A stretch of DNA of 60,204 bases from Desulfobacteraceae bacterium (GCA_030604635.1 JAUVVL010000001.1:1-60204), one strand, 5' to 3'; positions 26,141-56,162 are shown, counted from the stretch's first letter. Notes: a model not told the origin generated them from the letters alone. Made by a program: numbers and translations.

Positions 26141-26347
26141 GTAGATCCCATTTGCATTCAAGATCAAAAACTATAGCATCGTAACTCATAATACGATCAT
26201 AGGACTCACAATCGTGGTCCGCCCCCGACATCCGTTTGATTTAGATTGTCACCAGCATAGGTCTTCATTCTTCACGTCTCAGCTTTACTTTGTCAAGAAT
26301 GAACGGGCTGACCCCCATGTTTTATCCACCTCGAATATATCTCGCAA

Positions 26348-26920: not shown

Positions 26921-27002
26921 AACTTAAACAGCTAGCGCACCCCCCTTCCCGCGCCGAGACTGCAGGGAGGGCATGCGATCAGTAGCAGTGGTCAACTTTC
27001 CA

Positions 27003-28418: not shown

Positions 28419-28421
28419 TTT

Positions 28422-28793: not shown

Positions 28794-28853
28794 ATTATCA
28801 ATACAATCCTATTTTATTCGAAAACAAAAAGTAAGGTGTTTAATAGAAAATCA

Positions 28854-30383
28854 TCATTTCTTAGAATGTTTATCAAACCACTCATCTAGTGACATTTTCT
28901 TGCCTTTGGCGTATTCGACATAGATTTTATCATCTATACATTTAACCGGATACTCGCGCTCGCTTAACTTCTGTCCTTCAAAGCTAACAGAGGGTAAAAA
29001 GGCCTTGTCGCCCGAATCTCTGAAAAATTGAATGAAGTGTTTCTTCTCGTTCTTCTCGGCTGTCATCTTGATACTCTTTATTGCGTAAACCTGGCGCTTG
29101 CCAGTCATTTCACTATGAGACTGCCTTAATGAATAAAACCTACACAACTCCTCGGCTTTCCTCTTGAAAAATACACCTAAATCATGGTGCTCAGCAACCT
29201 CATATCCAATAAAGATGTCGATGTCTTTGCCATTGCTTGATCTGTCGAATGCTATCGATGCCTCGGCTGTTGTGTCATGGTATTTTCGAGTTAACATTGG
29301 ACGCCCGTACCGAGAGAACTCCTCCAATTGGTCTGCAATGATGAGAATGTCGGCAAGGCTATTTAGAGATTCCAAATGGGTGAAATCGAACTCGTGTTGT
29401 GCGATTGCAAAAAGAATGTCGCCACGTATTATGTTATCTACGGCTTCTTCGTCATCTAAACCCCACTCCTCAGCCGCGCCTCGCACTGACGTATCCGCAA
29501 AGATACCAAGAATCTTGTAAATCAGGTATGAACTCATGATACCATGTTGTTTTTTTTCAAGTGCCCGGCAAAGCCTCCAATATGTTGAATCATCTCTATA
29601 ACATTTTATCAGCACTTGCTTTGTATCACTGCTGGGTACAATTCTTACATCCATTGCCATCAGTTCGAGGAACTGCGAGGCTATATAATGATGTTCAATG
29701 TCTAAAGTATATCCGATGCGCCTAAATCTTGGGATGTCGAAAAATTCCAGAACCCCTTGCACTTTTTCGTTGAGTTTATCAAGTTTAGCAAGAGAATACC
29801 CCAAATCATGGCATAGCGCCATCAAACACCATATGGCATCTTTCCTATCGTTGACCCCCTTACAGATTTCCTCCTCCCTTTCTCTGGCTTCGGCCAAAAG
29901 GCTACGCACGTCCAAGGATGTCTCACTTTCAATGTCATTGTACAAATACCAGTTGAGACTGTCTTGTTTCTCAGGCAGGTGATCCCTAAGGATATGTTCC
30001 CCTATGAAATATACCCACAACGAGTGAAGCGTATGATCTCTATAATAGGGCTCCAAGCCATACAATATTTCTTCGAAGCTCGTGGCAGCATCGAGGTAGT
30101 TAAATAACTTCGAGTTTCCTTTTGAATCGATGTCAATAGCATTTAAAGCGGAACTTGCCAGTTCCTGCCACAGGCCTCGGCCTTTTTTATGAGCATCCTG
30201 CCAGTCTAAATTTGTGCTCAAATCACCTTTTTTTGAAGCTTTTGAAAAATCAGATATTAAATCGTTTAAAAGTTGTAAAATATTTTGTTGCTCCGGAGTG
30301 TTTTTCTGTAAGAACTGGATCTTATCTTTTTTAACCAAATTTTGATAATTTTTTAGCAGTTCAAGCACATTCAGCTTTTTCAT
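28854..30383 (-). CDS. HD-superfamily phosphohydrolase, distantly dGTPase/SAMHD1-like
   Basis: 509 aa. YRDHTLHSLWV (His), LMALCHDLGY (HD) and ILIIADQLEEF (Asp). Confidence 0.7.
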   Translation of the reverse strand: MKKLNVLELLKNYQNLVKKDKIQFLQKNTPEQQNILQLLNDLISDFSKASKKGDLSTNLDWQDAHKKGRGLWQELASSALNAIDIDSKGNSKLFNYLDAATSFEEILYGLEPYYRDHTLHSLWVYFIGEHILRDHLPEKQDSLNWYLYNDIESETSLDVRSLLAEAREREEEICKGVNDRKDAIWCLMALCHDLGYSLAKLDKLNEKVQGVLEFFDIPRFRRIGYTLDIEHHYIASQFLELMAMDVRIVPSSDTKQVLIKCYRDDSTYWRLCRALEKKQHGIMSSYLIYKILGIFADTSVRGAAEEWGLDDEEAVDNIIRGDILFAIAQHEFDFTHLESLNSLADILIIADQLEEFSRYGRPMLTRKYHDTTAEASIAFDRSSNGKDIDIFIGYEVAEHHDLGVFFKRKAEELCRFYSLRQSHSEMTGKRQVYAIKSIKMTAEKNEKKHFIQFFRDSGDKAFLPSVSFEGQKLSEREYPVKCIDDKIYVEYAKGKKMSLDEWFDKHSKK

Positions 30384-30397
30384 TTATTCACCTGAAT

Positions 30398-31177
30398 TTA
30401 TGGCAATATAATTTCATTGGCCCAGTCAAGAGCGTCTTTCCAAATAAGATCTAGCGCACGATAATGCAGCTCAAGTAAATCTGACTTGTCTTTTATCCAC
30501 CATTCGCCTTCCAACTTACCACTCGATTGAATCATTCCGTGTTGATTAATCTCAAAGGATATAAGCGGTTTATCCTCAAGTCCATCGCATTTTGATATCC
30601 TTTGGCACCTTTCACAAGTTTTTGGATCTTTCGAATTTGGATAAATACAATCCGAGAAACACAGCGTTCTGCTGGTACCATAGATAATACTTCCCTTAAT
30701 ATTACTCTGTCCATCACGTTCTGATGCCACTACGGTAAAATCAATATAAAATTTCAGACTATTGAAATCGAACTCGATTCGCTCTGGTGCAATAGCTACC
30801 ATGCTTCGTTTTTTCTGTTCACTACTTGGAACGGCCAAAATTAAAATATCAGTTATATCTTGCTCAAATTTTTCATTTTCAGGCGTAAGGTTCAGTGTAA
30901 ATTTCTTGTCATTTGGATTAATTCCCTTTTTTATCTTACCATTTTTATTTATATAGCCTTTTTTCTTTAATTCCTTCCAGATTTCCTCTGATTTTTTATC
31001 GTCTATCCCTTCAATCTTTGAAAAAGCTTGTTTTGGAACAGTCACAATTATATCTTTAAGAATAGTTCGGGCATTATCTAATTGTCCTTTTATTCCTTTT
31101 ACTTTTTTATCGACTGCATCTAATCTGTTTTTTGCCTTTTTGCTCTTTCCTGTGGGTTTATATGGATCTTCTGTCAT
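30398..31177 (-). CDS. Hypothetical Lys-rich protein with a C-terminal Cys cluster
   Basis: ATG at 31177 follows GGAAGGGGGG (the track ORF extends to 31258 and overlaps the helicase). CFSDCIYPNSKDPKTCERCQRISKC. Confidence 0.6.
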   Translation of the reverse strand: MTEDPYKPTGKSKKAKNRLDAVDKKVKGIKGQLDNARTILKDIIVTVPKQAFSKIEGIDDKKSEEIWKELKKKGYINKNGKIKKGINPNDKKFTLNLTPENEKFEQDITDILILAVPSSEQKKRSMVAIAPERIEFDFNSLKFYIDFTVVASERDGQSNIKGSIIYGTSRTLCFSDCIYPNSKDPKTCERCQRISKCDGLEDKPLISFEINQHGMIQSSGKLEGEWWIKDKSDLLELHYRALDLIWKDALDWANEIILP

Positions 31178-31230
31178 CGTAGTCCCCCCTTCCATTAATT
31201 GAATCATTTTCTTATTTTGTTCCCGTATCT

Positions 31231-34023
31231 TCAATTCACAGTCTGAACGCCAACGCACTTGTGTCGGACATTGATAACCGCGTCATAGTCTGAACGGATC
31301 TTTGCTTCATGATTCCTAGTGAACATTTTTAGTTTATCCGCATTAAACAATATAGGTTCTAATGATTCAACCTTTTTAAAGTCTTTATGAAGCAGAAAAT
31401 CCAAATCGTCTGGAACTTCTTTTCCATCAATAACAAAACTCTGATACAGCTCTCGTCTGGTTCCATCCTCAAATTCAATCGTAAAAAGATGTCGAGATGT
31501 CAGGCATGGGGCTACACCATCACATTTTATATTCGACAATTCACCGGATACGGATTCGCTCTTATAGAAGTCTAATAAAGCATCTATAAGCGTGTGCCCG
31601 ATCCCGAGTAAATCCACATTTTTTTTGCGGGTAGCGGTTTTCCTGGAAAAGGTAACGTTTTCATATCGAGATGCCACGTCTGAATATTTCCTTAGCGCAG
31701 GAGGAACAACAATTTGAATAATATCTCCAGAGGGGATGAAGCTTCCTCCCAGGCGCAAGATCGCCTTTTCCGTGAATCGTTTCAAATCTTTAAGCGTAAA
31801 CTTCCCTTCTAGCTCTCTGTAGTATTCCAGGTTGAATGTTGATAGGTCCTGTGTAAGCTGCAAGAGGGCTTGGCTGGCATCTTTCGCTGCCTCGATGGCT
31901 TCGGTGATCTCTTGCTCAGTTCTTTCGTAGTCTCGATATAGAAGGGCCTCCCTGTAGAGAGATGTGTAATTTGTGCTTGATCCTAATAATCCGAGTATCT
32001 CCGACCGGAAATCCTCACTTACGTCACCTGTGACAGCATCTACTTTACCAATGGTCGTTGCTATCTCCAAAAGTTTTTCCTCGAGAATTGCGTAAACCTT
32101 TTCTTCTATGGTTCCTTCAGCAACAAGGTGATACGCCTGAACTGTATCGGCTTGGCCGTATCTATGGATTCTACCAATACGCTGTTCAACAGCCATAGGA
32201 TTCCACGGCAGATCATAGTTGAATAGAATTCTACAAATCTGAAGGTTGATTCCCTCGCCTCCTGCAGAGGTGGAGATGAGGAACTGTGCGCCATTCTCAT
32301 CCCAGAAAGATTCACAAGATGCAATTTTATCCTCCAATGGCCCACCTCTTACAATTGCTATCTTCTCAGGATCATAGTATTTACCTATCTCGTCTTGAAG
32401 GAAATAGAGAGTTTCAAGGTATTGGGTAAAAATGATCATCTTTTCATTCTTATGTTCCCTTCTGATTTGTTCAATAGCTCGAATTAATGTGTCAAATTTC
32501 CGGTCAGGTCCTTCGTCCACAAGGTCTATAAGTTCTTTTATTTTTTCCTCCTCATCAGGGATATTGGCCGCGGCTTCAATGATTCCTTCTCCCGATTCCA
32601 TAGCATCCAGAGCCCAATGGGTGACTTCTTCCTTAAACCGGGGCCTTTTCATAAGACGCTGTTTTAGTCTTGTGATATATGAATCAGCTTCCGTATAGTC
32701 AATGATAGACTCTCGATAGGACAGTAACTCAGCAACTATTCTCCGCATCTCTTCCTGATAATTAATGATTTTAGATGAGATTTCCGGCCTGGTTATCGCG
32801 CCATATGCACCACTTTCGAGAGACATCTGTTTGCGGGCGTAAAGTGCAATCAGGCGCCGCCTCAATGCCTGTTTGATGGCCCTTGGACTGGAGGACATAA
32901 TCTTCTGAAAAGTAGCCATCACAAAGCCCACTGCGCGCTGTTGTTTAGTGGTTTTGTCTTTTCCTGCGCCGGCAGCATCGTAACCTTCTTTAAGATATTC
33001 GGTAAGTCTATCGTAAAATCTCTGCTCACGCATGGAGAGTTGAAATTTTTGGGTGTGCACCTGTCTCCGCATGAAAATCGGATCGCCCTGGGCATCTGTA
33101 ACTTCCTTTTTTGTACGCCGAAACATTACCCTGCCCAGGAGACCTCTGTGATCCATCATCGCCTCTGGTTCTTCAAAAAGCTGATCATCCAAAAGTTGAA
33201 TCAAGGACCAGAATTGGTAAGCATTCCCCTGGTGAGGAGTAGCTGTCAGAAAAAGGAAATCCCGGGCTTTTCCCTTGATTTTCTCTGCCAGTCGATAATT
33301 CTGGGTGATATCTATTTTTTTGCCGTATCGCTTCCTGCTCAAATGATGGGCTTCATCAAAAACAATCAAGTCCCAGTCCGGACCTTTCATCATTTTTTCC
33401 AAACGTTGTGGTTTTTTGATCGTGTCTATGGAAACAATTACTAAACTGTGTCGTTCCCACACATGAGGATTGGTATCGGAAAAGTCCCGGCCGAAGATGT
33501 CAAAAAAAATCCTGAAACAATCCTTCATTTCATTCTGCCAGTTAACGGTAAGACCTGCGGGGCAAATGACCAGTATTCTCCTTGCTTCTCCACGTGCTAA
33601 AAGCTCCTTAATAATCATTCCCACTTCAATGGTTTTCCCCAGGCCCACTTCGTCGGCAATCAAGTATTTTCGCCTACGGGAGCTGACAATCTGATGGGTT
33701 AACAGAATCTGGTGAGGAAGGAGGTCTGTTTTACTATTGGAAAGTTCACCCCCGGAATTTTCAAGGGGTAGCTGGTATGCTAATTGTTTCAGAAAAAAGT
33801 CTGTGGGATGATCAGATTCACCGTTTTGATACCGCTGAAAGATATCAGCGACAGGCGTAAGACTACCCTGGGGAAAGGTTTCTAAAAACCGCTTTCCGTC
33901 TTTTTCAAAAACCACGTCAACCTGGTATTCTCCACCTGATGCTTCTGCAACCTGGAGCACCTCGCCGGTACCCAGTTCAGGACGGTATGTGACTCTTACT
34001 TTTGTATCTTTTTTGATTTGCAT
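31231..34023 (-). CDS. SNF2-family helicase/ATPase with an N-terminal Tudor/SH3-like domain
   Basis: 930 aa. LLPHQ, LIADEVGLGKTIEVG, VFDEAHHL, FLTATPHQG, STSAGGEGINLQ, YDLPWNPMAVEQRIGRIHRYGQ. Confidence 0.92.
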   Translation of the reverse strand: MQIKKDTKVRVTYRPELGTGEVLQVAEASGGEYQVDVVFEKDGKRFLETFPQGSLTPVADIFQRYQNGESDHPTDFFLKQLAYQLPLENSGGELSNSKTDLLPHQILLTHQIVSSRRRKYLIADEVGLGKTIEVGMIIKELLARGEARRILVICPAGLTVNWQNEMKDCFRIFFDIFGRDFSDTNPHVWERHSLVIVSIDTIKKPQRLEKMMKGPDWDLIVFDEAHHLSRKRYGKKIDITQNYRLAEKIKGKARDFLFLTATPHQGNAYQFWSLIQLLDDQLFEEPEAMMDHRGLLGRVMFRRTKKEVTDAQGDPIFMRRQVHTQKFQLSMREQRFYDRLTEYLKEGYDAAGAGKDKTTKQQRAVGFVMATFQKIMSSSPRAIKQALRRRLIALYARKQMSLESGAYGAITRPEISSKIINYQEEMRRIVAELLSYRESIIDYTEADSYITRLKQRLMKRPRFKEEVTHWALDAMESGEGIIEAAANIPDEEEKIKELIDLVDEGPDRKFDTLIRAIEQIRREHKNEKMIIFTQYLETLYFLQDEIGKYYDPEKIAIVRGGPLEDKIASCESFWDENGAQFLISTSAGGEGINLQICRILFNYDLPWNPMAVEQRIGRIHRYGQADTVQAYHLVAEGTIEEKVYAILEEKLLEIATTIGKVDAVTGDVSEDFRSEILGLLGSSTNYTSLYREALLYRDYERTEQEITEAIEAAKDASQALLQLTQDLSTFNLEYYRELEGKFTLKDLKRFTEKAILRLGGSFIPSGDIIQIVVPPALRKYSDVASRYENVTFSRKTATRKKNVDLLGIGHTLIDALLDFYKSESVSGELSNIKCDGVAPCLTSRHLFTIEFEDGTRRELYQSFVIDGKEVPDDLDFLLHKDFKKVESLEPILFNADKLKMFTRNHEAKIRSDYDAVINVRHKCVGVQTVN

Positions 34024-34056
34024 TTAAGAGATGATATCAGTTCCTATTGCTAAAAT

Positions 34057-34731
34057 TTAACAAAATGAGAAAAACACATGAAACAGAGTTATCGGTTTTC
34101 CGACCGAGGGTCTGTTATGTTTTGAGCGGTAACAATTATCGAGATTCGTTAAGTTATCAACATGTTTCCAGTTGCCATCAAAGCATAGCCAGAGCAACTC
34201 TGTGTTTTTTATAAACGTGTCATGCGCTTTTTTTGCCCAGTATGACGGTGTTTCCGATTGGACGTAACCTAACATCCCTGCCTCATCCTGTTCACGTGCA
34301 TAATTTCCGGAAAGGAACTGCCTCAACCCATCCGGCCCGAGATACTTGTCCATTTTAGCATGAGTTTGAGAAGAGAGCCTTTTGGCTTCGAAAGGGTAGC
34401 GTGGATGCTTGCCGGCGCCTGTACGTTCAAATTCGATGTCCAGCTTAAGGCGTCGTTTTCCTAGCCTCCCAGGAGCATTGATTCTAGGATCGTCATGTAT
34501 TGCATAATAATGAGTCCATGAGGGACTTAAACGATCTTCTATCACATTCCTGATCTCTCTTATGAGTTCACCTGTAATATCTTCTTCCTCGGAATCCTGG
34601 AAATCCGGGGAATCAAGACGTTCATATCCCAGCCTAAGCAATTCAAAGACTTGTCTGCGAAAACTTTTATGATATTCGTGTCGATCATCAGAAGCGCTTG
34701 TGCGTACTTGAAAGCCACTGCTTATAGTCAT
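34057..34731 (-). CDS. PD-(D/E)xK-like putative nuclease
   Basis: 224 aa. IHDDP...LKLDIEFERTGAGKHPRYPFEAKRL (D-x17-E-x-K). Its ATG abuts the MTase stop (TAGATG). Confidence 0.45.
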   Translation of the reverse strand: MTISSGFQVRTSASDDRHEYHKSFRRQVFELLRLGYERLDSPDFQDSEEEDITGELIREIRNVIEDRLSPSWTHYYAIHDDPRINAPGRLGKRRLKLDIEFERTGAGKHPRYPFEAKRLSSQTHAKMDKYLGPDGLRQFLSGNYAREQDEAGMLGYVQSETPSYWAKKAHDTFIKNTELLWLCFDGNWKHVDNLTNLDNCYRSKHNRPSVGKPITLFHVFFSFC

Positions 34732-37700
34732 CTATTTGGTATCTCCGGTCATGGTCAGCTTTTCGGCAATGAATTCATCTGCATCAATGAGAGCCTGACT
34801 CTTAAGCCAGGAAAGTCTTTGCAGCGGTTTTGCAAAGCAAGTAGTGCGGCCTTCAAATAGCTTGAGATTCCGGTTAAAATATATCCACTGCCCCTGTTCC
34901 CTTAAAAGACTCTCTCTGATCCTTTTGAACTCTTTTTTTGTGTCCTGATCTTCAACCCTGACAACACTCACCGGACCAGCAGGCGGTTTTCGGGAATGTT
35001 CTATTTTTGCAATAGCTAAATCATTTGAATAGAAAACCGTAATGCGATGCTGATCTTTTATATCGCCGTTCAGAAAACTATCAAGTTCCGCTTTTAATAC
35101 ATTTGCGTATGCGCGCATTTCTGTTTCATCTGCTGGCATAGTGGCCTCTTTAGCTATCCTGCCTTCGTTCAGGTTTTTACGCACATGGAGCAAATCCTGA
35201 ATCAGCCAGCGTTCGCTCTGATTAATACCCATAAGGGCATAGACTCTTTCGTTTAACTGTTCCAGCAATGGCAAAGCATCAATCATTTCTTTACGCGGGT
35301 CGAATAGCGTATTTTGTGATTCCCTTGAAGTTGCCCGGACGAGTTCATCATGTAAAGATACCCATTCGGAAAGCTCATGGGAAGACAGATCATCAAGTGG
35401 AATTGGAAGATTCTCTATATCGCTATTGTTTGCGCGATCCCGTTCAATTCCCAATATTGGGGATGATAGAAATTGATGATAGATGAAAAAATCAGAGGCG
35501 AAATATAGAGCTAACGCCTTTAATAGGCTATTATCTCCAGGACTTCCAGCAATACCGATTTGTCTGTGCGGAACTACGATAAATTCGTCTGAAAACACAG
35601 CAAACCTTCGCGCCGCATCAACAATAATGTGTGGTGGATAGCATGCTTTTAGCGGTGTTTTCCCGCGCCCCTTTCTTACATAGGCTCTTGAAGCTACTAC
35701 AGGTTTCAACGCCTCTTTGGGAAACGCAAATATTCTACCGCACTTACTCAGCACACTCATATCTAGTTCAAGTTTGCCTTCTATTTCCGCCAAAGGTTCT
35801 ACTGGTTCTTTAGCATATTTTGTGCGAAGAACAATGCCCTGATGTATTATCAGTCGATGTTGGGCTTTGAATTCAGAAAACGATGGATAACGTTTTTGCA
35901 GGCTATTCAAAAGGTGTTTATCCCGCACAGAGCCCCACATAGCGAGCTTCCATGGCAGACTATCTCCCGAGGCTGCATCCATACGAGAAACCTCACGAAT
36001 TTCATCGGCATTGACGATAATGATCCATAGCTTTTTATCTTGCCTGTTATCAACCTGATACCGTGATAATTGATGAACAGCAAATGGGGCAAATGTAACG
36101 ATATGATGAGACGAGCAGTTATTGTCTTCTTGCCGAATAGAGTAAAAAAATGCTGCCGCGGGGCTTGTAGAGCCTTGAAATATAAGATGCCGGAGATTGG
36201 AAAAATTCACAATAGACCAGACGTCCATCCGGTCGAAAAATTGCTGCCTGAATTTTGTTGCATGTGTTTTGAACAATGTAACAGCAGGCAATAACAAGCC
36301 TACCACTCCCTGGCTGGAAAGATGTCGCGTTACTTCCCAGGCAAAGGCTTCGGCTATCTGATTATCGCTGGTTGGAAATTGATCTTTATTTTTCTTAATC
36401 CAATCAAGGGCAGACTTATCGCCTTTCTCTAGTTTATTAGCTTTCAGTTGTTTCCATGGAGGATTGCCAACGATCCAGTCAAAGCTGTTCCCTGGCTTGT
36501 TCTCCTCCCATTCCGAATTCGGCTTGAAAAAGCCGTCCTTACAACAAAAGATGTTCTGATTACGCAAAGCAGGCAGTTTAAATTTTTTATACCCCGGTTT
36601 TTCAAGGTCAGGAGGGCTAACATAATCAAGAAGTGTGAGGATAAGGCTGAGTTCTGTTACTCCGCATGCATCCTCGTCCACGTCCATGCCATAGATGTGG
36701 TTGGTCATTAGATACCGCAATTCGGAAGGTTGAAGCCGTTTTTCAGGATTCTTTGTTTGTTCTCGCTCAACAAGCCTTCTATAGCATTGGACCAGGAATG
36801 CCCCTGAACCGCACGCAGGATCAAAGGCTTTCATGCCCTTTTGGAATGGGCGTTTTGAGTCAAGTTCATCCAGGACAAAATTTACTAAATGAATAGGGGT
36901 GTAATAGGCGCCCTGACTTCTTCCCTTTCCTTCAGCGTGAAGAAACTGCTGATATACAATAGAAAGGGTCTCTATCGGAATATACTCAAAGTTGTATGCC
37001 TTGAAATCCAGATGCATCTGATCGGATTTGGGATCGTCGCCGAGGAAAACAGACGATACTTTTTGGATATGTTCAACTTTAGGGGCAGGCCGACCTTTTC
37101 TTGGAACAGGAAAAACGACTCCATTCAGCCAATCTTCAAGCCTATCGTTAACCGCATAAAAGCCCTCAATAGTCGAGTTGCGACCAAAAACCGATTCTTT
37201 ATCAATCGACCATTGCTCCAGCTTGCGATCTGAAAGGATTTTTCTATCTCTTAAATAATATAGGTATACAAACTTGCCGATAAGAGCGTGAGCCGTGTGT
37301 CGGGGCAATCCATTGCTGCGCAGCCATGTACCAAGGGACCTGAGACTTCCAAGTAATCTCCTGTCAACCCTCTTATTTTGAGGAATCTCTTTCTCCCATC
37401 TCGTCCACAGGTCCCCTTTGTTAATTGAGTCGGATGTAAAATCAGAAAGCTTTTCAAGGACTTCGTTTGTCCTCTTTGCGACTTTAAGAATGGATTGATT
37501 TTTGTCCTCACTCAATCTGGGGTCAAACTTGAAGCCAGGATAAAGACGAATAGTTTTTGGCGTTAGAACAATAAGAAATGGGACGATATTCTGATTCCAA
37601 ACCAGTCTGTGAAATTCTCTTGCCTTTTGCTCCGTGTCTGCCTCACATACATACACCACGGGAATTATAGATTCATGTGAGGGATGATTTCTCTCCGGTG

Positions 37701-37851
37701 TTTTTAATGTATAAACGCCGTGCAAGTCGCATTTTTCACTGGCAAGACGAAATATGTGGGAGTAACCTGGGTGCTCGTAAAGACGCTCACCTGAGAGATA
37801 ATATGGAGAATCAGTATAGTTCAGGCATCTTATAAGGTGATCTATATCCAT
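34732..37851 (-). CDS. Large gamma-class N6-adenine DNA methyltransferase (type IIG/IIL or PglX-like architecture)
   Basis: 1039 aa. GAYYTPIHLVNFVLDEL, FDPACGSGAFLV (motif I), IYGMDVDEDAC and WIVGNPPW (motif IV), with long N- and C-terminal extra domains. Confidence 0.85.
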   Translation of the reverse strand: MDIDHLIRCLNYTDSPYYLSGERLYEHPGYSHIFRLASEKCDLHGVYTLKTPERNHPSHESIIPVVYVCEADTEQKAREFHRLVWNQNIVPFLIVLTPKTIRLYPGFKFDPRLSEDKNQSILKVAKRTNEVLEKLSDFTSDSINKGDLWTRWEKEIPQNKRVDRRLLGSLRSLGTWLRSNGLPRHTAHALIGKFVYLYYLRDRKILSDRKLEQWSIDKESVFGRNSTIEGFYAVNDRLEDWLNGVVFPVPRKGRPAPKVEHIQKVSSVFLGDDPKSDQMHLDFKAYNFEYIPIETLSIVYQQFLHAEGKGRSQGAYYTPIHLVNFVLDELDSKRPFQKGMKAFDPACGSGAFLVQCYRRLVEREQTKNPEKRLQPSELRYLMTNHIYGMDVDEDACGVTELSLILTLLDYVSPPDLEKPGYKKFKLPALRNQNIFCCKDGFFKPNSEWEENKPGNSFDWIVGNPPWKQLKANKLEKGDKSALDWIKKNKDQFPTSDNQIAEAFAWEVTRHLSSQGVVGLLLPAVTLFKTHATKFRQQFFDRMDVWSIVNFSNLRHLIFQGSTSPAAAFFYSIRQEDNNCSSHHIVTFAPFAVHQLSRYQVDNRQDKKLWIIIVNADEIREVSRMDAASGDSLPWKLAMWGSVRDKHLLNSLQKRYPSFSEFKAQHRLIIHQGIVLRTKYAKEPVEPLAEIEGKLELDMSVLSKCGRIFAFPKEALKPVVASRAYVRKGRGKTPLKACYPPHIIVDAARRFAVFSDEFIVVPHRQIGIAGSPGDNSLLKALALYFASDFFIYHQFLSSPILGIERDRANNSDIENLPIPLDDLSSHELSEWVSLHDELVRATSRESQNTLFDPRKEMIDALPLLEQLNERVYALMGINQSERWLIQDLLHVRKNLNEGRIAKEATMPADETEMRAYANVLKAELDSFLNGDIKDQHRITVFYSNDLAIAKIEHSRKPPAGPVSVVRVEDQDTKKEFKRIRESLLREQGQWIYFNRNLKLFEGRTTCFAKPLQRLSWLKSQALIDADEFIAEKLTMTGDTK

Positions 37852-37995
37852 TAAGTGTGCCCTCCGTTCAAGGAAATAGCCTAATCAAAGCTTAAAACTA
37901 AACCTTTATCACATACAATCACTTTTAGTAAACATCCGTTCTGTTTAAGCTCTATGAAGACGGTTAAAGAAGTTTAATATCTCTACGCACTATTG

Positions 37996-38649
37996 TTATC
38001 TAAATTCCCTGCAAACCCATATAACTTTTCCAATAATGCGTACTCTGTTGATATCCTCATTCTCCAAATAAAGAGATTTATATTTAGTATTATCACTAAA
38101 CAAGACGAGTCCTTTCGGATGTTTTTCCACCCTTTTAACCATGATAGTGTCGTCGATTCCCACTGCATAGACAGCACCGGCCAATACATCTTTCTGGGCC
38201 TCATCAATAAGTACGGTATCCCCCTCTCTGAATTCCGGCTCCATGCTGTTGCCGAAAATATCCAGCAAAACCATTTTTTCAGCAGTCCCTTTTCTTGACA
38301 GCCAGTCCATTCTAAAGGAATAATATCCTTCGATTTCAGATCCGACTTCAAAAGAACCGCCGCCTGCACACAGCCTGGCTTTCACCTTGGGGACCTTTTT
38401 GAATTCAGATTCATTTGTACTGAAGGATTTAATGAAAACAGGGCCGATCCCCTCTTCAAGCCAATTGGGATTTAGACCATATTTGCGATAAAGCAGCAAG
38501 ATCCACCTGGCCGGAATTGAGTCCTTTTTACGGGCCTGGGTAATGGCTGACGGGTTGATTCCGAGAGCGGAAGCCAGCTCATTTTGATAGCGAAAGCCCG
38601 TAGCCTCGTAAACCTTATGAATAAAAGCGTCAAATCGAGTAAGGGGCAT
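37996..38649 (-). CDS. LexA/CI-like repressor (XRE HTH + S24 peptidase)
   Basis: 217 aa. QNELASALGINPSAITQARK (HTH), GNSMEPEF (Ser) and IMVKRV (Lys). Confidence 0.88.
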   Translation of the reverse strand: MPLTRFDAFIHKVYEATGFRYQNELASALGINPSAITQARKKDSIPARWILLLYRKYGLNPNWLEEGIGPVFIKSFSTNESEFKKVPKVKARLCAGGGSFEVGSEIEGYYSFRMDWLSRKGTAEKMVLLDIFGNSMEPEFREGDTVLIDEAQKDVLAGAVYAVGIDDTIMVKRVEKHPKGLVLFSDNTKYKSLYLENEDINRVRIIGKVIWVCREFR

Positions 38650-38685
38650 GAGGTTTGATGCATCCGTGTTAAAAAATAAATATAA

Positions 38686-38720
38686 TTGATATTTATAAAT
38701 TAAGATTTTATAAATATCAA
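38686..38720 (-). promoter_or_regulatory. Perfect 14-bp inverted repeat TTGATATTTATAAA-N7-TTTATAAATATCAA, 36 nt upstream of the S24 repressor start. Candidate operator.
   Basis: Read directly from the sequence, in an AT-rich promoter-like region. Confidence 0.6.
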
Positions 38721-38868
38721 GTTTTTTTCAAAAGAAAGTACTATTTACATTGAAAATACGATTTTCTTAGGTCTACGTTTTTGGTGTAAAAATTGACGGT
38801 TTGAGGTTTGTAAAGAGTGCTATTTTTCGGTTTTACTTCAGCAAATCAATACGTTAGTTTGATGCGAG

Positions 38869-38997
38869 TTAAAAGACCAGAAAGCGGCACAGCCAGGGAC
38901 TCTGAGCCTGTAGAGCTGCTCGCCACCTAAGCACCGCGCCACTACCCAGTTCGGGACGATATGGAACTTTTAGTTTTGTATCTTTTTTGATTTGCAT
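38869..38997 (-). pseudogene. Degenerate 5' remnant of an SNF2 helicase gene, paralogous to the start of 31231-34023
   Basis: MQIKKDTKLKVPYRPELGSGAVL versus MQIKKDTKVRVTYRPELGTGEVL. DNA similarity extends over ~100 nt by eye. It begins 13 nt after the stop of the 142-aa gene. Confidence 0.8.
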
Positions 38998-39010
38998 TTG
39001 ATAACGCCTA

Positions 39011-39439
39011 TCAACTCGATAGATTAAAGCTGGTAGTGTAAACCGGGAATCCTCTAATTTCCTGTTTTCTGGGAGTGCCAAAAATGAAATCAAGCGGGAA
39101 AGTCTCCCCTCGATATTCCACCCAAAAAGAGTCTCCCTTGACCAGCCTCCCTTTGCAAACGATCTGAACCTCGATTTTTTTCTTTTCAAGATCAGTTGCC
39201 GCGGATTGAAGGACTTTATGGATATCAAGGGCAACGGCGTGTCGCTTTTCCCGTTCCGCTAGATAAAGAACATCATCAATGCCCACAACCATGAAAGAAG
39301 AATACCTTGATAGCCCCTCAGACCCGGCATTAAGTTCCCGAAGAAAATCAAGAAGACCGATCTTTATCTCGTAAGGAGCTATACCATCTTCTCTATAAAG
39401 CTTCAGATATTTTTGTTCCAGGATTTCATAGCCTTTCAT
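39011..39439 (-). CDS. Small hypothetical protein coupled to the DUF1156 methylase
   Basis: 142 aa starting at MKGYEILEQ. Its ATG lies 1 nt after the methylase stop (TGAGATG). Confidence 0.6.
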   Translation of the reverse strand: MKGYEILEQKYLKLYREDGIAPYEIKIGLLDFLRELNAGSEGLSRYSSFMVVGIDDVLYLAEREKRHAVALDIHKVLQSAATDLEKKKIEVQIVCKGRLVKGDSFWVEYRGETFPLDFIFGTPRKQEIRGFPVYTTSFNLSS

Positions 39440-39440: not shown

Positions 39441-42419
39441 TCAAACCTCAATGATATTGAGTACTTTGTTGATTGGTCCCTGAAAAGTAGGGTTTTTATC
39501 CAGCAGATACTCAAAAGAAACCCGGATATTGGGGATAACAGGCTTAAACTCGTTTAGCCACGGAACCAGGTTTTCGCCTGCCTCGGCAAGACCCATCAGG
39601 TAATGGAGAACATCGACCAGGGCCACGTTATCAAATTTGGCCTCCTCCAATTCAGGAAAAAGCAAGAGCTGGCTCAGGCTTTTAAATTTGCTTTTAAACA
39701 ATTTGGCCAGATCCGTATAGCGTTCATTCGGAAGCTTTACCTCGTAAGTCCTGCCTCGTTTGGCCCGGCCTTTTCTGATAACACCGGCTTTAATAAGAAC
39801 CTCGGGCTCCATAATGCCCCTGGTAGTCTTATGCACTTCATCACTTTTGATCTCTTTCCTGTCACAAAGACAGGTGAGATATATGTAACTTGCCGGATCA
39901 ATATGCTCAAGCTCCGAAGGGAGGGGCTGTTGAGTGGTGACGATCTGCTCCACCATCATCCGTATGGATGTAAGAGCTTCACCAAGAGGTACAACAGCGC
40001 CTTTATAGTCCACGATCATTCCATAATGCCTGCTGTAAAGTTCAAGGCATTTGCCAATGAGGATGATGTTGACGTCGTCCGGAGAAAGTTTTTCTTTGCC
40101 ATATCTTCCGGCCTCTATCATCTCAATTTCTTTACGGGCTTTCTTGCGAATTTCTTCTCTGACCCCGGCCCAGGATCGCTGCCGGGTCTCTGATTGACCA
40201 TTGCGCTTTTTACAGACATGGATAAGATCGTAGGCAATGGACTGTTTTCCCATGAGGTGGAGGGAACTTTCAGATTCTCCGTGTATGGGATATATCGCTT
40301 CAATCACAAAACCCGCATTACAGAGAGAATCCAAAAGGGATTCCCAGGCGCTCCCTTCCCTGTGATGGAAAGTAAACACCATTAAGCCGTCATCTTTCAG
40401 ATTTTCACAGCACCTTCGCCAGGCTTCTGTAAGACCTTCTTGATAGTCTGATGCGGTTTTCCCACGGGTTGGGTTTTCAATAATTTCTTCAGCCTTGGGG
40501 GTGATTTCCGGAGCAAAATGCGGGTATGTTCTTGAAAGAATCAGCCTCAGCCAGACATAGAAGAAATCAGCAAGTTCGGAGTAGTTGACGTTTCCGGCAT
40601 AGGGAGGATCTGTGATTACTAAATCTGCTTTTAAGGGGAACTTCATGTTTTGAGATGTTGTACAGTCAAGTGCACAATTTCTCCGAGTGCCCTGAATTTT
40701 TTCTTGTGAATTTTCAAAAACACTCTTATTGCCTATGATCTTTCGGTCAAATGGTTTTAAGTTATAATTTTTTCCTCTAATGATAGCATCAAACAAGGAA
40801 ATAAATGTTCCCATTCCTATTGAAGTTCCCCAAACGTTACTTTCACATATCGTTGCCTTGGGTTGAAAATCATGCCGAGCAAAAATCTGTCTAATACAAT
40901 CTCGTTGCCAAATATAGGTACAAAAGTCACTCATATTATTCAAAAGATTATAAAACCCGCTCAACAACATCTCCTTCAAAACTTGGTTCTCTTCTTCCCC
41001 AATAGCCGCAAGCAGCGTACTCAGGCACAACAACTGCCTGGAGTTGAACATCTGATGCCAATATGCATAGTGATGCTCTAACAACCTATGCGTTTCTTGT
41101 CCGTCTGGAATTTCACTCTTCGGATAAGGCAGCCTGTCCTTTTCCTCTCCCCACCTCCTCTCTGCATTCTGATATTTTTTGAGATCAGCAGGTGTGATCC
41201 TTTTGAAGAATTTGCCTCTGTTATTATGGATATTGCATTGATGTGCTATTATTTTCTTATGTTTCAAAAGGTCTCCATGTATATCCAATTCTTCTTTATC
41301 CCCCGCGCATTCCGCACAATAACCCTCTACAGCATAAGGCCTGGTTGGAAGGAGTTGATTCTCGGGAAGCTTTCGGATGGAATTAATAATCTTATCCTTG
41401 GTCCCGCAGGAAGGGCAAATAAAAGCGCCTTTTCCTGTATTTCCCTGTAAAGGCTTGCAGCTTTTTGAACAAACAGGACAAGACACCTCTTCCGGCAATG
41501 TTCCACGATACTGCCAGACAGCATAGCAGTGGGGGCACAATAAAATTGTTAGAGGAACCTTTTTCCTCGCCTTTTTTAAATTGTCTGGATTTGAACCATG
41601 CAAATTGTTGGTTTGCGCACACCAGGGACACTTGACGCTATATTCGATCGAATTATACGGCGCCCAACGCCTGTTGTTTCTTTCCTTTCCGACCGCATCC
41701 CTTGCATTATTTATCATCATGGATTTTTCGGCGACTAAAGATGCCATATCCATATCCAGATCGAATGTTTTTTTGCATTTGACGCATTGATAATCCGGCA
41801 AATAGCGGACGGAGGGGGACTTTTTGGCAATAATGTAATTTGGAAACAAAGGAACTTCTTTAAGGCAGGTAGGGTTCGTACAGATAGCCGACTTGACCCA
41901 GAAAGTATATATGATATCAGCTTGTTCGCGACCTGCCCCGCAACAGGGACATTCGGTTTTGTAATGACCGAGAAGTTCTTCCTTCAAAGGCTTTCCACTT
42001 GAAGTGGTCCTCACCTCCAGCCTCTTGAATGCGGCCTTTAGCTCATCTATATCTACCGGCTCCACTTCGGTCTTTACAATGAACCACGCCACGGGGCTGA
42101 GATCGATGCCGGTGACGTGACAACCCAAACGAAGGGCCTCCACTATGGTGGTTCCTCCGCCCATAAACGGGTCCAATATCCTGACTCCGTTGGTATCGGG
42201 ATCATTGGTGTGATCCTTGTAAAACTCAGTCATTATATCTGTTCCGGCAGGTTTCATGGCGGCCAGCAGAATTGCTCGAAATACGCACGAAGCCCTGCGC
42301 GCAAACCATTTGTGCATCTTGTAAATAGGTTTAAAGGCGTTTCTTTCCGGTATGGCAAGCCGGTTGATCTCGACAACCGGGAAACTTTCTTCAATAGCCT
42401 TTCTAATGCTGTTTTCCAT
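39441..42419 (-). CDS. DUF1156-type adenine-specific DNA methyltransferase with Zn-ribbon insertions (PglXI-like)
   Basis: 992 aa. The N-terminus FPVVEINRLAIPERNAFKPIYKMHKWFARRASCVFRAILLA is DUF1156-like. DPFMGGGTTIVEA (motif I), multiple CxxC pairs, and VITDPPYAGNVNY (motif IV). Confidence 0.85.
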   Translation of the reverse strand: MENSIRKAIEESFPVVEINRLAIPERNAFKPIYKMHKWFARRASCVFRAILLAAMKPAGTDIMTEFYKDHTNDPDTNGVRILDPFMGGGTTIVEALRLGCHVTGIDLSPVAWFIVKTEVEPVDIDELKAAFKRLEVRTTSSGKPLKEELLGHYKTECPCCGAGREQADIIYTFWVKSAICTNPTCLKEVPLFPNYIIAKKSPSVRYLPDYQCVKCKKTFDLDMDMASLVAEKSMMINNARDAVGKERNNRRWAPYNSIEYSVKCPWCAQTNNLHGSNPDNLKKARKKVPLTILLCPHCYAVWQYRGTLPEEVSCPVCSKSCKPLQGNTGKGAFICPSCGTKDKIINSIRKLPENQLLPTRPYAVEGYCAECAGDKEELDIHGDLLKHKKIIAHQCNIHNNRGKFFKRITPADLKKYQNAERRWGEEKDRLPYPKSEIPDGQETHRLLEHHYAYWHQMFNSRQLLCLSTLLAAIGEEENQVLKEMLLSGFYNLLNNMSDFCTYIWQRDCIRQIFARHDFQPKATICESNVWGTSIGMGTFISLFDAIIRGKNYNLKPFDRKIIGNKSVFENSQEKIQGTRRNCALDCTTSQNMKFPLKADLVITDPPYAGNVNYSELADFFYVWLRLILSRTYPHFAPEITPKAEEIIENPTRGKTASDYQEGLTEAWRRCCENLKDDGLMVFTFHHREGSAWESLLDSLCNAGFVIEAIYPIHGESESSLHLMGKQSIAYDLIHVCKKRNGQSETRQRSWAGVREEIRKKARKEIEMIEAGRYGKEKLSPDDVNIILIGKCLELYSRHYGMIVDYKGAVVPLGEALTSIRMMVEQIVTTQQPLPSELEHIDPASYIYLTCLCDRKEIKSDEVHKTTRGIMEPEVLIKAGVIRKGRAKRGRTYEVKLPNERYTDLAKLFKSKFKSLSQLLLFPELEEAKFDNVALVDVLHYLMGLAEAGENLVPWLNEFKPVIPNIRVSFEYLLDKNPTFQGPINKVLNIIEV

Positions 42420-43399
42420 TATTGATTTACCTTAAGTTCGATCCAGGGCGTTATCATTTCCATCAATGACAGCCCGCCATGCCTGTAAAGTCTGCTTGCC
42501 GCTTCGCCGGATGATCTTGTTCTTACCCGGCCTTTGACCATGGCTAGATTTTGCGATTGGACTATAAAAATATCATCACTTGCAGGTGTGTCTGGTTTTT
42601 CTTCCAATGGAACATTCCGGTCGTTTCCAAAATAGGCGTTTAAAGTCTTCATTTCAGATGGGCTTCGGGGAAAATCCATCCCTGTTCCGAAAAAAATGTA
42701 TCCATGGTCGCTTGTGATAATGATCTTCTCTTTTCCTTTTATGGACTGGACAGTATTGATCCAAGCTGTTTCAAAAAGAGCATGGATATTCTCAAAGTGG
42801 CCCTCAAATTTGGCTCCGCTGTCTTTGTACGTTACATCCGGGAATGAAGACCATACAAGCAGCGGGGAATTTTGATACTCCCCTGAAATGGGGTGGGTAA
42901 TATTCTTGCTGTAGATCGTGACAATTCCTTTTTCTTTGAGCTCTTTTCTGGTTTCAAGCTGAGACGGCGCAATATGACCACAGGGGAGTTCCCGGTGGAT
43001 AAAATCGATGGTTTCGCTGGGTATGGCGGCCTGCGATGCACCTGTCAAAGAAACGGGAAGCCCTGATTTATCTGCAAGGGTCAAAATCATCGGCACTTCT
43101 CTGATGGACAGCCCGTCGAAAACAACTACCGCAGTATCAGGATCGGAGAGCGCTTCCAGCAGATTTCCTGAGGTGTCCGGGGTAGAAAGAAGCTCCCCAT
43201 AAATCCTGTCAGCGGCTGACGCGACTAACATTTCAAAACGATTAACCTTTTCCTCTCCACCTCGAAGGAATTCGATTGGGCTTAAGTTGCGATAACGCTC
43301 AGGGCTCCATACCTCTTCCAGCAGCCACTCTATTATCCAAGCCAGACGAGGGCCTGATTCGATCAACCTGTTGAAAAGGGCCTGGTCCAGGGTATCCAT
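42419..43399 (-). CDS. Compact PglZ-domain (alkaline-phosphatase superfamily) protein
   Basis: 326 aa. VVVFDGLSIRE, IPSET, IITSDHGY and YRHGGLSLMEMITP. Its stop overlaps the methylase start (TAATG). Confidence 0.75.
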   Translation of the reverse strand: MDTLDQALFNRLIESGPRLAWIIEWLLEEVWSPERYRNLSPIEFLRGGEEKVNRFEMLVASAADRIYGELLSTPDTSGNLLEALSDPDTAVVVFDGLSIREVPMILTLADKSGLPVSLTGASQAAIPSETIDFIHRELPCGHIAPSQLETRKELKEKGIVTIYSKNITHPISGEYQNSPLLVWSSFPDVTYKDSGAKFEGHFENIHALFETAWINTVQSIKGKEKIIITSDHGYIFFGTGMDFPRSPSEMKTLNAYFGNDRNVPLEEKPDTPASDDIFIVQSQNLAMVKGRVRTRSSGEAASRLYRHGGLSLMEMITPWIELKVNQ

Positions 43400-43402: not shown

Positions 43403-46063
43403 TCACCTCTTTGCCTGTTTTAAGACTTCCACTTCCAGGTCCACAGAAAAATCGGCATCATTAATGACCGGAAGTGATTCAATCTGCTGCTCAATCTGTG
43501 ATTTCGAGAATGTTCCGGTCTTTGAGATGACAATTTCTGCCGTAATATCACCCTCACCGCTGAGAGATCCCCTAATACCAGAAGAAATGGTGCTGAGATC
43601 GCCGATATTGGTTTTTTGCAGGAATATTTTGTAAGTAACTTTGGTAATGATCCCCTCCTCGCAGTCCTGGAGCCTGAAAGCTGTCTCTTGCCTGAGATTT
43701 ACGATACTGTTCTGAGGGGGTATTTTAATAGGCAGAATCTCCTTTTCCGGGCATTCACAAGGATCTTTTCCGCAGTTGGAACAGACCGCAGGAGGTGTCG
43801 GACATTGGCAGGGGAATTCTCCACAAACCGGACATTTCTGAGGCGGTTTTGGGCATTGGCAGGGGAATTCCCCACATTTGGAACATGGCTCCGGTTTTGA
43901 TGGTTCTTCAAAAGGATCGGTCACTTTGGCATTGAATAGTTCGGTTTCATTCAGAGTAGGGCTGACATGGCAAAAGTTTCCCGCGCTATGCTGAATGCCG
44001 ATAACACCCTCCTTGCAAAGATTGCGTATGGCACTTGAAACGGCTCTTACAATCAGGGGAACAGGAAAACCGAGGGTAGCCCGATATTCGGCGTCTATCT
44101 CCTTGACCAAAAGATTCTTTATCTGGTCGAGCCTACCCTCGAGATGTTCCTTGAAGCGCAACATCGGGAAATAGTCCTGATTTAGCTTTTCCAAAACTTT
44201 ATCTTTTGAAAGATCTCCGGGAAGAGGTTCAAGCTCCACCTGGTCTTCAGCGACTGAACTTCCATACTTTTCCCAGCTTACAAAGACCAGACCGGCCTTC
44301 TTGATCCTTTCGATGATATACCTTTTATCCGTACCGGCAATGCGATGATAATCGTTTCGCCGAGCCGTATTTTTCGTACTTTCCGCCAGGTCCTTCGCTG
44401 CAAGAAGTCGTTTAGCCCACTTGAGCAAGTCCTTATCGTTTGCGATTTGAAATCTATCATCCTTTGGTTCCAAAAGAAGAATCATGTTTCTGACATCCAT
44501 TCCATAATAAATCTGATGCCTTTCCTCTCGAGTGAGCCTTCGACCTGTTAAAACATAGCGGAGGCGGGATTTATCGAACTGTTTTAATAATTCCTGGGCT
44601 TGTTCTATTGAATCGAAAATAACCGTATTTACAGCTTCCCTGAATATGTCCGCCTTCAGAATCACATATAATTCCTCGCGGGCCTGCGCATCCGAATATT
44701 GAAGGGATTTGAATTCTACTTTTGCTTCGGAATTTTCTTCCAGGTCAAAATAGTAGCGGCCTTCCTGGTGATGAAAGTAGGAGGCGTACTTTTGAAAGCC
44801 CATCAATGTTTGTTCAATGTCATTGATATCCGTTGAAGGCGATAAAATATCCCGGACGAGATTTTCCCTGGCAACACCGGTATCGGCTCCAACACCGGTC
44901 AATGTATAAAGAAGAACGGCAGGCGCCAGCTGGCGGGCTAGTGGCGTTCTGGGAATAAGATCTTCCATGTTCTCTTTGGCACGGTTGATCAGGTCACCGC
45001 TCAAGTCAAGATCTTTCAACATAATCGCAGTGGCCTTATCCTCAAGGGAAACATCACCAGGTGTTATGATATCATTTCCGGTATGGGTTAATCTGATCAG
45101 GTTGCCGAGAAAGGCTAAAGCGCCACGTACGTTTTGAAAACCTCCCCTTGCCGGTATTTTTTTGAGGATAATCTCCATGAGAGATGGCGAGAAAGGATAA
45201 GTATCGTTGAATTTGGCTTTGAGCTCTTCCTGGTCAACCGGCGCATGCCTGTTCCACAATTGGATGTAACTCCCAAGCACCGGCAAAATAGAAGCTCTGT
45301 CAAACTGTTTATAGTTTTCAAAAAGCCTGTGCAAAATAATGTGGCTCTGGTCTTTGGCGTTATCAAATTGAACCACGCATCGAGGAACACGTTTCAGGGT
45401 ACTGCCCGGTTCTTGCTGAGTGCTGTATATACTCGCAAATAGGGTTACCTGTCTTGAACGGTTACTAAATTCAGAAAGCATCTGAAGAAAGGCTATATTC
45501 TGGGCTTGTAGTGCGGGATCACCAATGACCTTGATGCCTTGCTCCAGCTCATCGAAGATCAGGATGATCTTTTTATCTCCAAGGGCTTTCTCAAATTCAG
45601 ACAATTTCGGATGAGTCTTGCCCTTCTTAACCTCTGTTCCAAGTGCCTCGAATATCATATTCCAGATGGAATCATGAGGATCATCGGTGAACTTATTGAT
45701 TAGCACAACAGCATCCTGGAAAATCTCACATGATAATCCATTTTCATTGAGCCATCCCTGAGCAACCTGGGGGTGTTTAAACAAATGGTAAATCATCAAA
45801 AGCAGGTGGGATTTACCACTGCCTTTGAGGCCCTCGAAAAGAAAAAGCCCGGAAGAATCCCTTGAAGATGAAAAACGAACATTGATTTCATACAGGACCT
45901 TTTTGACATCCGAAGTAGGGTAAGTAAGTTGGAAAAAATCATCCGGGCGAGCCTCGATTTTGGTTCTGGATTCATCTTTCAAGTTCGCCAGATCGATAAT
46001 TCCTTCAATTCCCTCTTCAGAAATCGCCTCTTGCCGTGGTTTCAGAAATGCGGAGTAGCCCAT
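43403..46063 (-). CDS. DUF499-type P-loop ATPase (BrxC/PglY-like)
   Basis: 886 aa. Walker A GLKGSGKSHLLL and Walker B ILIFDELEQG. Three tandem CxxCG(E/K)(F/D)PC(Q/E)CP units sit near the C-terminus. Confidence 0.75.
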   Translation of the reverse strand: MGYSAFLKPRQEAISEEGIEGIIDLANLKDESRTKIEARPDDFFQLTYPTSDVKKVLYEINVRFSSSRDSSGLFLFEGLKGSGKSHLLLMIYHLFKHPQVAQGWLNENGLSCEIFQDAVVLINKFTDDPHDSIWNMIFEALGTEVKKGKTHPKLSEFEKALGDKKIILIFDELEQGIKVIGDPALQAQNIAFLQMLSEFSNRSRQVTLFASIYSTQQEPGSTLKRVPRCVVQFDNAKDQSHIILHRLFENYKQFDRASILPVLGSYIQLWNRHAPVDQEELKAKFNDTYPFSPSLMEIILKKIPARGGFQNVRGALAFLGNLIRLTHTGNDIITPGDVSLEDKATAIMLKDLDLSGDLINRAKENMEDLIPRTPLARQLAPAVLLYTLTGVGADTGVARENLVRDILSPSTDINDIEQTLMGFQKYASYFHHQEGRYYFDLEENSEAKVEFKSLQYSDAQAREELYVILKADIFREAVNTVIFDSIEQAQELLKQFDKSRLRYVLTGRRLTREERHQIYYGMDVRNMILLLEPKDDRFQIANDKDLLKWAKRLLAAKDLAESTKNTARRNDYHRIAGTDKRYIIERIKKAGLVFVSWEKYGSSVAEDQVELEPLPGDLSKDKVLEKLNQDYFPMLRFKEHLEGRLDQIKNLLVKEIDAEYRATLGFPVPLIVRAVSSAIRNLCKEGVIGIQHSAGNFCHVSPTLNETELFNAKVTDPFEEPSKPEPCSKCGEFPCQCPKPPQKCPVCGEFPCQCPTPPAVCSNCGKDPCECPEKEILPIKIPPQNSIVNLRQETAFRLQDCEEGIITKVTYKIFLQKTNIGDLSTISSGIRGSLSGEGDITAEIVISKTGTFSKSQIEQQIESLPVINDADFSVDLEVEVLKQAKR

Positions 46064-49478: not shown

Positions 49479-49496
49479 AGAGATGAAAAGCATAAC

Positions 49497-56155: not shown

Positions 56156-56162
56156 ATGTTGA

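Follow-up and report, generated by a model that had tools for sequence, protein, structure and literature searches.

The Hma defence system of PADLOC, since renamed the 'DUF499-centred BREX-related (BR)' system (PMC12839542), is known to carry extra genes within its operons. Payne et al. (2024, bioRxiv 10.1101/2024.01.29.577857) reported embedded genes in 62.7% of 1,485 Hma systems, with 376 cassette types and 96.7% co-orientation, and proposed a 'genomic sink' idea without a molecular mechanism, the words 'recombination' and 'remnant' being absent from their text. Such embedding, in Hma, BREX, DISARM and type I restriction-modification (R-M) operons, serves the discovery of new defence systems. 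Here, an embedded cassette was analysed in a 60,204-nt stretch of DNA (the window) from a Desulfobacteraceae bacterium (GCA_030604635.1, JAUVVL010000001.1:1-60204), which is a contig from a metagenome assembly. In the region examined (34024-38997), a predicted S24-controlled type IIG-like R-M module lies directly upstream of an intact SNF2 helicase gene and is preceded by the 5′ stump of what can be recognized as another allele of the same helicase, a configuration that is probably a recombination scar.

As in the cassettes described by Payne et al., the sequence 34024-38752 is placed between two core genes (the DUF8076 gene and the helicase gene) in the same orientation as them, and among relatives this place was either empty or filled with many alternative contents, including GmrSD-like HEC-05, Lamassu-type ABC ATPases and toxin-antitoxin genes, which also occur among the published cassettes. 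The present locus differs from those cassettes in that its junction is marked by the 5′ stump of a different helicase allele and in that it carries a type IIG-like R-M module under predicted S24 control. It also resembles the embedded genes PrrC in the type I R-M operon EcoprrI and BrxU in BREX, since a second, co-oriented defence module is nested in a methylation-based system, and in another locus this same module was found inside a type I R-M operon, with hsdS on one side and hsdM on the other.

The duplicated helicase start was recovered as a direct repeat of 70 nt (33956-34025 and 38930-38999), with 61 of the 70 positions identical (87%) and a start-to-start distance of 4974 nt. The search for direct-repeat families covered 27000-48000, where this repeat was by far the longest, the next families reaching at most 30 nt at 70%. 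Both copies begin 2-3 nt 5′ of an ATG, and the match, anchored at the two ATGs, proceeds ungapped and in frame over 69 nt and then ends; a perfect stretch of 26 nt is common to both. All genes within 28-48 kb lie on the minus strand, and the repeat carries the first 23 codons of the helicase twice, in the intact gene (start at 34023) and 13 nt past the gene of a 142-aa protein (start at 38997). An earlier note on this DNA had described the latter copy as a mini open reading frame (ORF) at 38869-38997 resembling the helicase start, and its coordinates, its peptide, the 13-nt distance and the resemblance itself were all reproduced by the repeat search and the alignment. This mini-ORF has 42 codons and begins 13 nt after the stop codon of the 142-aa gene (39011-39439); its product starts with MQIKKDTKLKVPYRPELGSGAVL..., to be compared with MQIKKDTKVRVTYRPELGTGEVL... 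in the helicase, and its tail is out of frame after the repeat.

The same note had estimated a similarity of about 100 nt, diverged rather than identical, and had proposed a nucleotide alignment as a check; the estimate was fair and the similarity proved to be far above chance. Local alignment of the stump region with the resident helicase past +69 yielded scores no better than shuffles. A profile built from 17 helicase alleles aligned with the stump from model position 1 to 106 (nhmmer E=3.6e-19); three small indels occur past +69, and the similarity reaches about +80 and possibly +106 (window ~38890). The stump of the older helicase allele can thus be delimited at 38890-38997 (minus strand), with codons 1-23 intact (38929-38997), similarity with indels down to ~38913-38890, and the mini-ORF reading through. 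It is separated from the 142-aa gene by the ancestral 13-nt spacer TAGGCGTTATCAA (38998-39010, minus strand), which occurs identically before a second stump in locus L005 and has related counterparts beginning with TAGGC in locus L045, where nothing is inserted. On the other side of the stump, about 180 nt (38753-38928) separate it from the module; this segment, including the orphan filler proper (38753-38889, minus strand), found no match in any of the 71 loci fetched for comparison (L001-L071, of which 60 or more are related Hma-type loci) by blastn with word sizes 7-11. Stop codons interrupt the segment in the frame tried, and no open frame was observed; it may remain from a previous cargo or from the flank of the donor.

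The evidence that the stump did not originate as a copy of the resident gene comes from the nature of its differences. The stump and the resident copy differ at 10 of 69 sites (59/69 identical), and eight of these ten differences are bases present in other natural alleles, against a mean of 3.5 expected under random substitution (P=0.003). The stump was as distant from the resident copy as from most of the close foreign alleles, to which it was identical at 55-59 of 69 sites, and the stump peptide was close to the family consensus VKVPYRPELGTGAVL and not randomly decayed. Past +69, after a 1-nt gap, the stump goes on with AGGTGGCG, as many alleles do (CAGGTGGCGGAA), at the point where the resident gene has CAGGTTGCAGAA. 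By these sequence comparisons the stump is identified as a distinct natural helicase allele and not a copy of the resident one, and the proposal of the earlier note that a different helicase allele had been recombined in is supported for the 5′ end of the gene.

Other stumps with different end points were found in L005 (+61), L027 (~+50) and L061 (~+45), the one in L027 (L027 2439-2607) being followed by an inverted helicase fragment. In addition, at least eight empty sites were detected (L028, L029, L030, L036, L045, L047, L049 and L051), in which the helicase begins 10-25 nt past the stop codon of the 142-aa gene; L045 is a close relative, with 87% identity at the helicase N-terminus. Because such empty-site relatives exist, the order 142-aa gene then helicase, as foreseen in the earlier note, is the ancestral one. 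Neither of the two outcomes named in the note as refuting its reading, a similarity at chance level or a lack of empty-site variants, was thus observed, and that reading is in the main supported.

Accessory defence genes repeatedly occupy the gap in front of the helicase, a slot in which at least nine other cargo types were found among relatives. For example, it was found to carry MJ0235 with TumE or DUF433 with DUF5615 pairs, a PIN toxin-antitoxin pair, Lamassu LmuA/C/B with PIN (L046), a DUF4365 nuclease (L044), SIR2 (L006/L016), AbiJ with the GmrSD-like HEC-05 (L014), and DUF1016/PDC-S02 (L032, L034, L048). Left junctions were not at the same place in different loci, the window included (spacer +5, spacer +20, helicase ~+45, ~+50, +61 and +70), which argues for illegitimate joining and not for a specific site. 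They do not show the helicase 5′ end, which had been suggested as the homology or target used, to be a specific target.

A leader of ~60 nt (consensus CAGGCAGGCAGATTGAATCTTAATAATTGTGTTGGATAGATATCTAATTTCATGATATAT) was also observed before unrelated cargos in 14 loci and was absent from the window. In most of them (L010, L011, L013, L014, L025, L026, L043, L046, L053, L054 and L057-L059) it was placed just past the stop codon of the 142-aa gene, and in L005 it was found past the helicase stump, at 1165-1225. The leader showed neither RNA structure nor covariation (-1.8 kcal/mol), nor was a sigma-70 promoter called in it by a promoter scan. In L053, L057, L058, L059 and L060 the 142-aa gene was present as C-terminal fragments only (from about residue 56-96), mostly followed by the leader and a cargo, which suggests that, once an operon is lost, its cargo can remain or move together with part of the left flank. 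Decayed related operons were likewise seen in L001 (5785-9246, fragmented ATPase and methylase), L002 (9735-10033, frameshifted helicase) and L062 (10085-11290, truncated helicase).

The cargo of the window is composed of three genes, annotated, like those of the host operon, with Pfam, PADLOC and NCBIfam. Its left end (38650-38752, minus strand) is the putative control region of the S24 gene, an AT-rich inverted repeat being found at 38678-38728; the homology with L065 begins at 38752, and 27 nt of this region (38674-38700) are 100% identical in L065. The AT-rich palindrome region as a whole (38674-38728) lies upstream of the S24 gene and is likely the operator of its repressor. A second, unrelated variant of the control region was common to L064, L066 and L067. 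The S24 gene itself (37996-38649, minus strand) encodes 217 aa with an N-terminal helix-turn-helix (HTH) and an S24 peptidase domain (Pfam Peptidase_S24 5e-21, Phage_CI_repr 4e-7; NCBIfam lexA 7e-13, below cutoff), and its translation preserves the GNSMEP and VKR motifs of a Ser/Lys dyad and a possible Ala-Gly site in CAGGG. With both HTH and S24 parts in place, the protein is a CI/LexA-type, predicted self-cleaving repressor.

The second gene (34732-37851, minus strand) encodes a type IIG-like N6-adenine methyltransferase/specificity protein of 1039 aa (Pfam N6_Mtase, Eco57I and MmeI_Mtase; PADLOC REase_MTase_IIG 4.7e-54), in which, as in type IIG enzymes, a gamma-class N6-adenine methylase is fused to a recognition domain. 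Residues 1-290 matched no Pfam or PDB sequence, and the PADLOC IIG models align from residue 79. Like the MmeI-family type IIG enzymes, the protein is a long single chain in which this methylase is accompanied by a recognition segment that can be swapped; it differs from them in that no N-terminal nuclease domain was found by Pfam, in that a repressor gene precedes it, and in that a separate conserved D...ExK protein may supply cleavage. This partner of 224 aa (34057-34731, minus strand) gave no hits in Pfam, PADLOC or NCBIfam. It has 166 homologues, and the 44 that were aligned all keep D98, E115 and K117. The 224-aa protein is always adjacent to the methylase, and it shares contigs with methylase homologues over 40-95% identity. 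Its AlphaFold (AF2) model was confident, with a predicted local distance difference test (pLDDT) score of 87.5; a Foldseek search of this model against the PDB returned nothing below E=0.1, and a PDB-sequence profile search returned nothing, the best weak Foldseek matches being mostly type II restriction endonucleases (PaqCI, SwaI, MunI, BamHI). The invariant motif and these weak restriction-enzyme matches indicate that the 224-aa protein is probably a PD-(D/E)xK nuclease. It is followed by a 33-nt spacer (34024-34056, minus strand) that abuts the helicase ATG and moves with the module: homology with L065 and L062 reaches 34026-34029, and in L069-L071 the 224-aa gene is joined to the helicase by the same 33 nt. 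From its gene content, the trio can be read as a self-contained, portable R-M module under an S24 repressor, in which the 224-aa protein would act as the nuclease and control would be of SOS/RecA type.

The portability of this module was verified by its presence in other genetic contexts, a check that the earlier note had suggested. The S24-IIG-224 set was found in L064, L066 and L067/68, all without Hma genes, with 78-87% nucleotide identity. In L065 (351-10844) it is the module placed between hsdS and hsdM, and the homology covers window positions 38752 to 34026, beginning ~100 nt 5′ of the S24 gene and ending 2-3 nt short of the helicase ATG. The L065 module is preceded by a short peptide similar to the DUF1016 N-terminal domain over positions 1-34 of the latter (Pfam E=0.0022, below cutoff); tblastn of a DUF1016 protein against this fragment found no match, its identity coming from the sub-threshold Pfam match alone. 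This arrangement suggests that in L065 a new cargo may have replaced an older one, leaving the start of the latter behind. Without the S24 gene, the IIG and 224-aa genes occupied the same Hma slot in L008 and L069-L071, filling it cleanly in L008 and L069. No flanking direct repeats were found around other module copies (L062, L064, L065 and L066), and no recombinase was found in the module copies.

Sliding-window identity along the methylase gene revealed that positions 35450-36000 are 96-98% identical to L064 and only 57-72% identical to L008, L062 and L065, whereas the flanks show the opposite pattern; the methylase 3′ end and the 224-aa gene are 94-98% identical to L008. The segment 35450-36000 looks like a swapped target-recognition domain, and the methylase gene is, on these identity profiles, a mosaic shaped by recombination within the module. 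The idea of modular exchange within defence operons, put forward in the earlier note, is supported by these results, and it was already published for Hma (bioRxiv 10.1101/2024.01.29.577857).

Slot, empty sites, portability of the module, a distinct stump allele and mosaic recombination inside the module were all observed at the sequence level, and the order and mechanism of the joins proposed here are those that most likely connect them. The old helicase allele would originally have stood directly after the 142-aa gene, the mini-ORF being what remains of its start. Donor DNA from another Hma locus, comprising the module and an intact helicase start, would then have replaced the 5′ region of the old helicase. 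Its right end would have been joined by homologous crossing-over within the helicase or the IIG-224 genes, and its left end illegitimately, at a point ~70-86 nt inside the old helicase. We consider it probable that the stump is a recombination scar of this kind. The overall event would correspond to homology-facilitated illegitimate recombination, possibly in two steps; in the two-step route, an illegitimate insertion would have broken the helicase, which would later have been repaired from an L069-type locus. Homology-facilitated illegitimate recombination has been described for naturally transformable bacteria. A homologous anchor combined with an illegitimate end would explain a duplicated, allelically different gene start and loss of the intervening recipient DNA, and both the different-allele stump and the mosaic right-hand genes fit this model. 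At the left join, an 8-nt overlap of AGGTGGCG is possible.

Some observations weigh against this proposal. Stumps were present in only 4 of ~60 loci, and most cargo joins lie in the spacer without a scar. No fetched locus has the orphan filler 38753-38889 beside the S24 gene, so the left junction and its microhomology are not readable. An independent assembly of the junctions, sought by exact protein (mini-ORF, S24 and helicase), gave nothing on record for this metagenome contig. Furthermore, the resident helicase has 78.8% nucleotide identity to L070 and 85% to L044/L001, and is not especially close to the helicases of IIG-224 loci; several recombination events are therefore needed, with no recent joint inheritance. 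Co-inheritance of the module with the helicase allele was accordingly rejected, the resident helicase being only 78.8% identical to that of L070, which stands behind the same 224-aa gene.

A simpler history would be a duplicative insertion, in which the arrival of the module at the helicase start produced a target duplication of ~70 nt, through widely staggered breaks or a replication error, and the upstream copy then drifted. The identical offset of the two copies from their ATG (-2/-3), their perfect 26-nt stretch and the module right end abutting the ATG are what such an event would leave. Nevertheless, duplication followed by drift is unlikely because the differences of the stump and its AGGTGGCG continuation match other alleles, eight of the ten differences being natural variants (P=0.003) and the peptide lying near the family consensus; in addition, the cassette has no transposase or integrase, the other module copies lack flanking direct repeats, and 180 nt of unrelated filler stand between stump and module. 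Site-specific integration, with the helicase start serving as the attachment site of a recombinase, as with integron cassettes or gene-restoring integrative elements, would account for the many different cargos in one slot, for the conserved ~60-nt leader before unrelated cargos in 14 loci, and for all junctions falling within ~100 nt. It is a quite improbable explanation: neither the cassette nor the ORFs scanned in the flanks (18862-30383 and 46562-56311) included a recombinase gene, the left junctions differ between loci, the module is not flanked by helicase-like sequence elsewhere, the leader shows no structure or covariation, and the clustering can be explained by selection against core-gene disruption. 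No tRNA genes were found in the window. With no recombinase in the cassette, no terminal or flanking repeats at other copies and junctions that vary, the cassette does not conform to a transposon, an integron or an integrative element.

Two further readings were considered. The contig could be an assembly chimera, in which a strain whose slot is empty was merged with another that has the cassette; it is derived from a metagenome, the search for a second assembly of the junctions found none, and related strains with different slot contents occur in the same sample series (SDBS/SDBT/SDBV contigs). Such an artefact is nonetheless very improbable, as the junction between stump and filler lies in unique sequence not common to the cassette side, so that no k-mer path would form it, and stumps of other lengths occur in the independent assemblies of L005, L027 and L061. 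There is equally little likelihood that the mini-ORF was kept as a functional upstream ORF or leader that couples the cassette to the translation or transcription of the 142-aa gene. Its start codon, its 13-nt spacing and its 23 intact first codons, with indels only beyond them, would suit such a role, as would the same spacer and start kept in L005; its tail, however, is out of frame and unconserved, the stumps of L005 and L027 end differently, the clean IIG-224 insertions need no such ORF, and no gene call for its product exists in the public collection.

Returning to the recombination scar, a broader claim can be raised tentatively, as a possibility to which we give less than even credence: that the helicase start (~90 nt, TUDOR-coding, plus the spacer) is a habitual junction for cargo gain and swap, with the helicase serving as the homologous anchor and the other end being illegitimate, so that stumps of 45-90 nt are left behind, as in the window, L005, L027 and L061. 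In the recombination account in general, junctions would cluster near the helicase start because joins elsewhere would destroy core genes and because recombination with the intact gene would remove long stumps. As a speculation, the perfect 26-nt stretch could permit precise loss of the cargo.

The host operon runs on the minus strand in the order ATPase, PglZ-like protein, DUF1156 methylase, DUF8076 protein and SNF2 helicase. Its first core gene (43403-46063) encodes a DUF499/HmaC-type AAA+ ATPase of 886 aa (PADLOC DUF499 6.8e-14, HmaC 6.6e-9; Pfam AAA_22; NCBIfam DUF499_antiphage 2e-19, below cutoff). It is followed by a 326-aa protein (42419-43399), a possible standalone PglZ with weak PADLOC PglZ hits (2.3e-5) in its C-terminal part, no Pfam hit and a position conserved in relatives, and by an HmaB-type DUF1156 N6-adenine methyltransferase of 992 aa (39441-42419; Pfam DUF1156 30.1 bits with a cutoff of 24, N6_N4_Mtase; PADLOC HmaB 2.3e-41). 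The 142-aa protein (39011-39439), encoded by the last conserved gene before the variable slot, belongs to DUF8076, as recorded by Pfam on its orthologues, which are 60-94% identical in 50 or more loci. The intact SNF2 helicase of 930 aa (31231-34023) is of HmaA/BrxHII type (Pfam SNF2-rel_dom, Helicase_C; PADLOC HmaA 9.3e-104), has more than 5000 homologues and contains the second repeat copy in its first 70 nt. A DUF499 AAA+ ATPase, a DUF1156 methylase and a Swi2/Snf2 helicase are thus all present in the same operon, and these predicted proteins place the host locus among the Hma-type, DUF499-centred BREX-related defence operons.

Among the BR systems, type 3 was characterized by PglZ as a separate gene, a small iSTAND protein and a helicase that begins with a TUDOR domain and lacks a fused nuclease (PMC12839542). 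The host gene set would best fit this type: it has the DUF499 ATPase, a DUF1156 methylase in which a recognition domain is nested, and an SNF2 helicase in which no nuclease domain was found by Pfam, together with two extra small or medium genes where the standalone PglZ and iSTAND are described. By position, the 326-aa protein is the candidate PglZ and the 142-aa protein the candidate iSTAND, with the difference that the PglZ identity of the former comes from weak hits alone. By analogy with this type, the codons left in the stump would correspond to the initial strands of the TUDOR domain. Within the DUF1156 methylase, positions 40700-41060 showed 51-58% identity to L008, compared with 80-90% in the rest of the gene; here the nested recognition domain is probably encoded, in which case methylation motifs would be strain-specific.

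Other features were observed in the flanks. Upstream of the operon, 46562-47994 (minus strand) carries a gene for a protein with HTH and M78 peptidase domains (PADLOC PD-Lambda-2_B 1.6e-38; also CapP/RmrA-like) and a HigB-like toxin gene, and could be a second defence or regulatory module. Downstream of the helicase, 27003-31258 (minus strand) encodes two proteins, of 286 aa and 509 aa, to which Pfam, PADLOC and NCBIfam gave no hit, and after them a 123-aa AdoMet-decarboxylase-like protein and a 471-aa protein of DUF3326. Relatives have different genes there, so that the operon may have another variable region on this side. At 14506-14575 (plus strand), a match to the Rfam c4-2 RNA, an antisense RNA family, was obtained with 42.1 bits (gathering score 41).

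Embedding had already been published for Hma, and the value of the present analysis is incremental: it adds a different-allele scar, as a clue to how cargo enters and turns over, and a portable module. The portable, repressor-controlled R-M module is documented moving between Hma and type I R-M operons. The stumps in the window and in three relatives offer a datable scar that points to recombination between related operons and not to a dedicated mobile-element mechanism. If the helicase start is indeed a habitual junction, the published embedding would gain a concrete mechanism, and stumps with a perfect 26-nt match would permit the precise loss of cargo from these operons.

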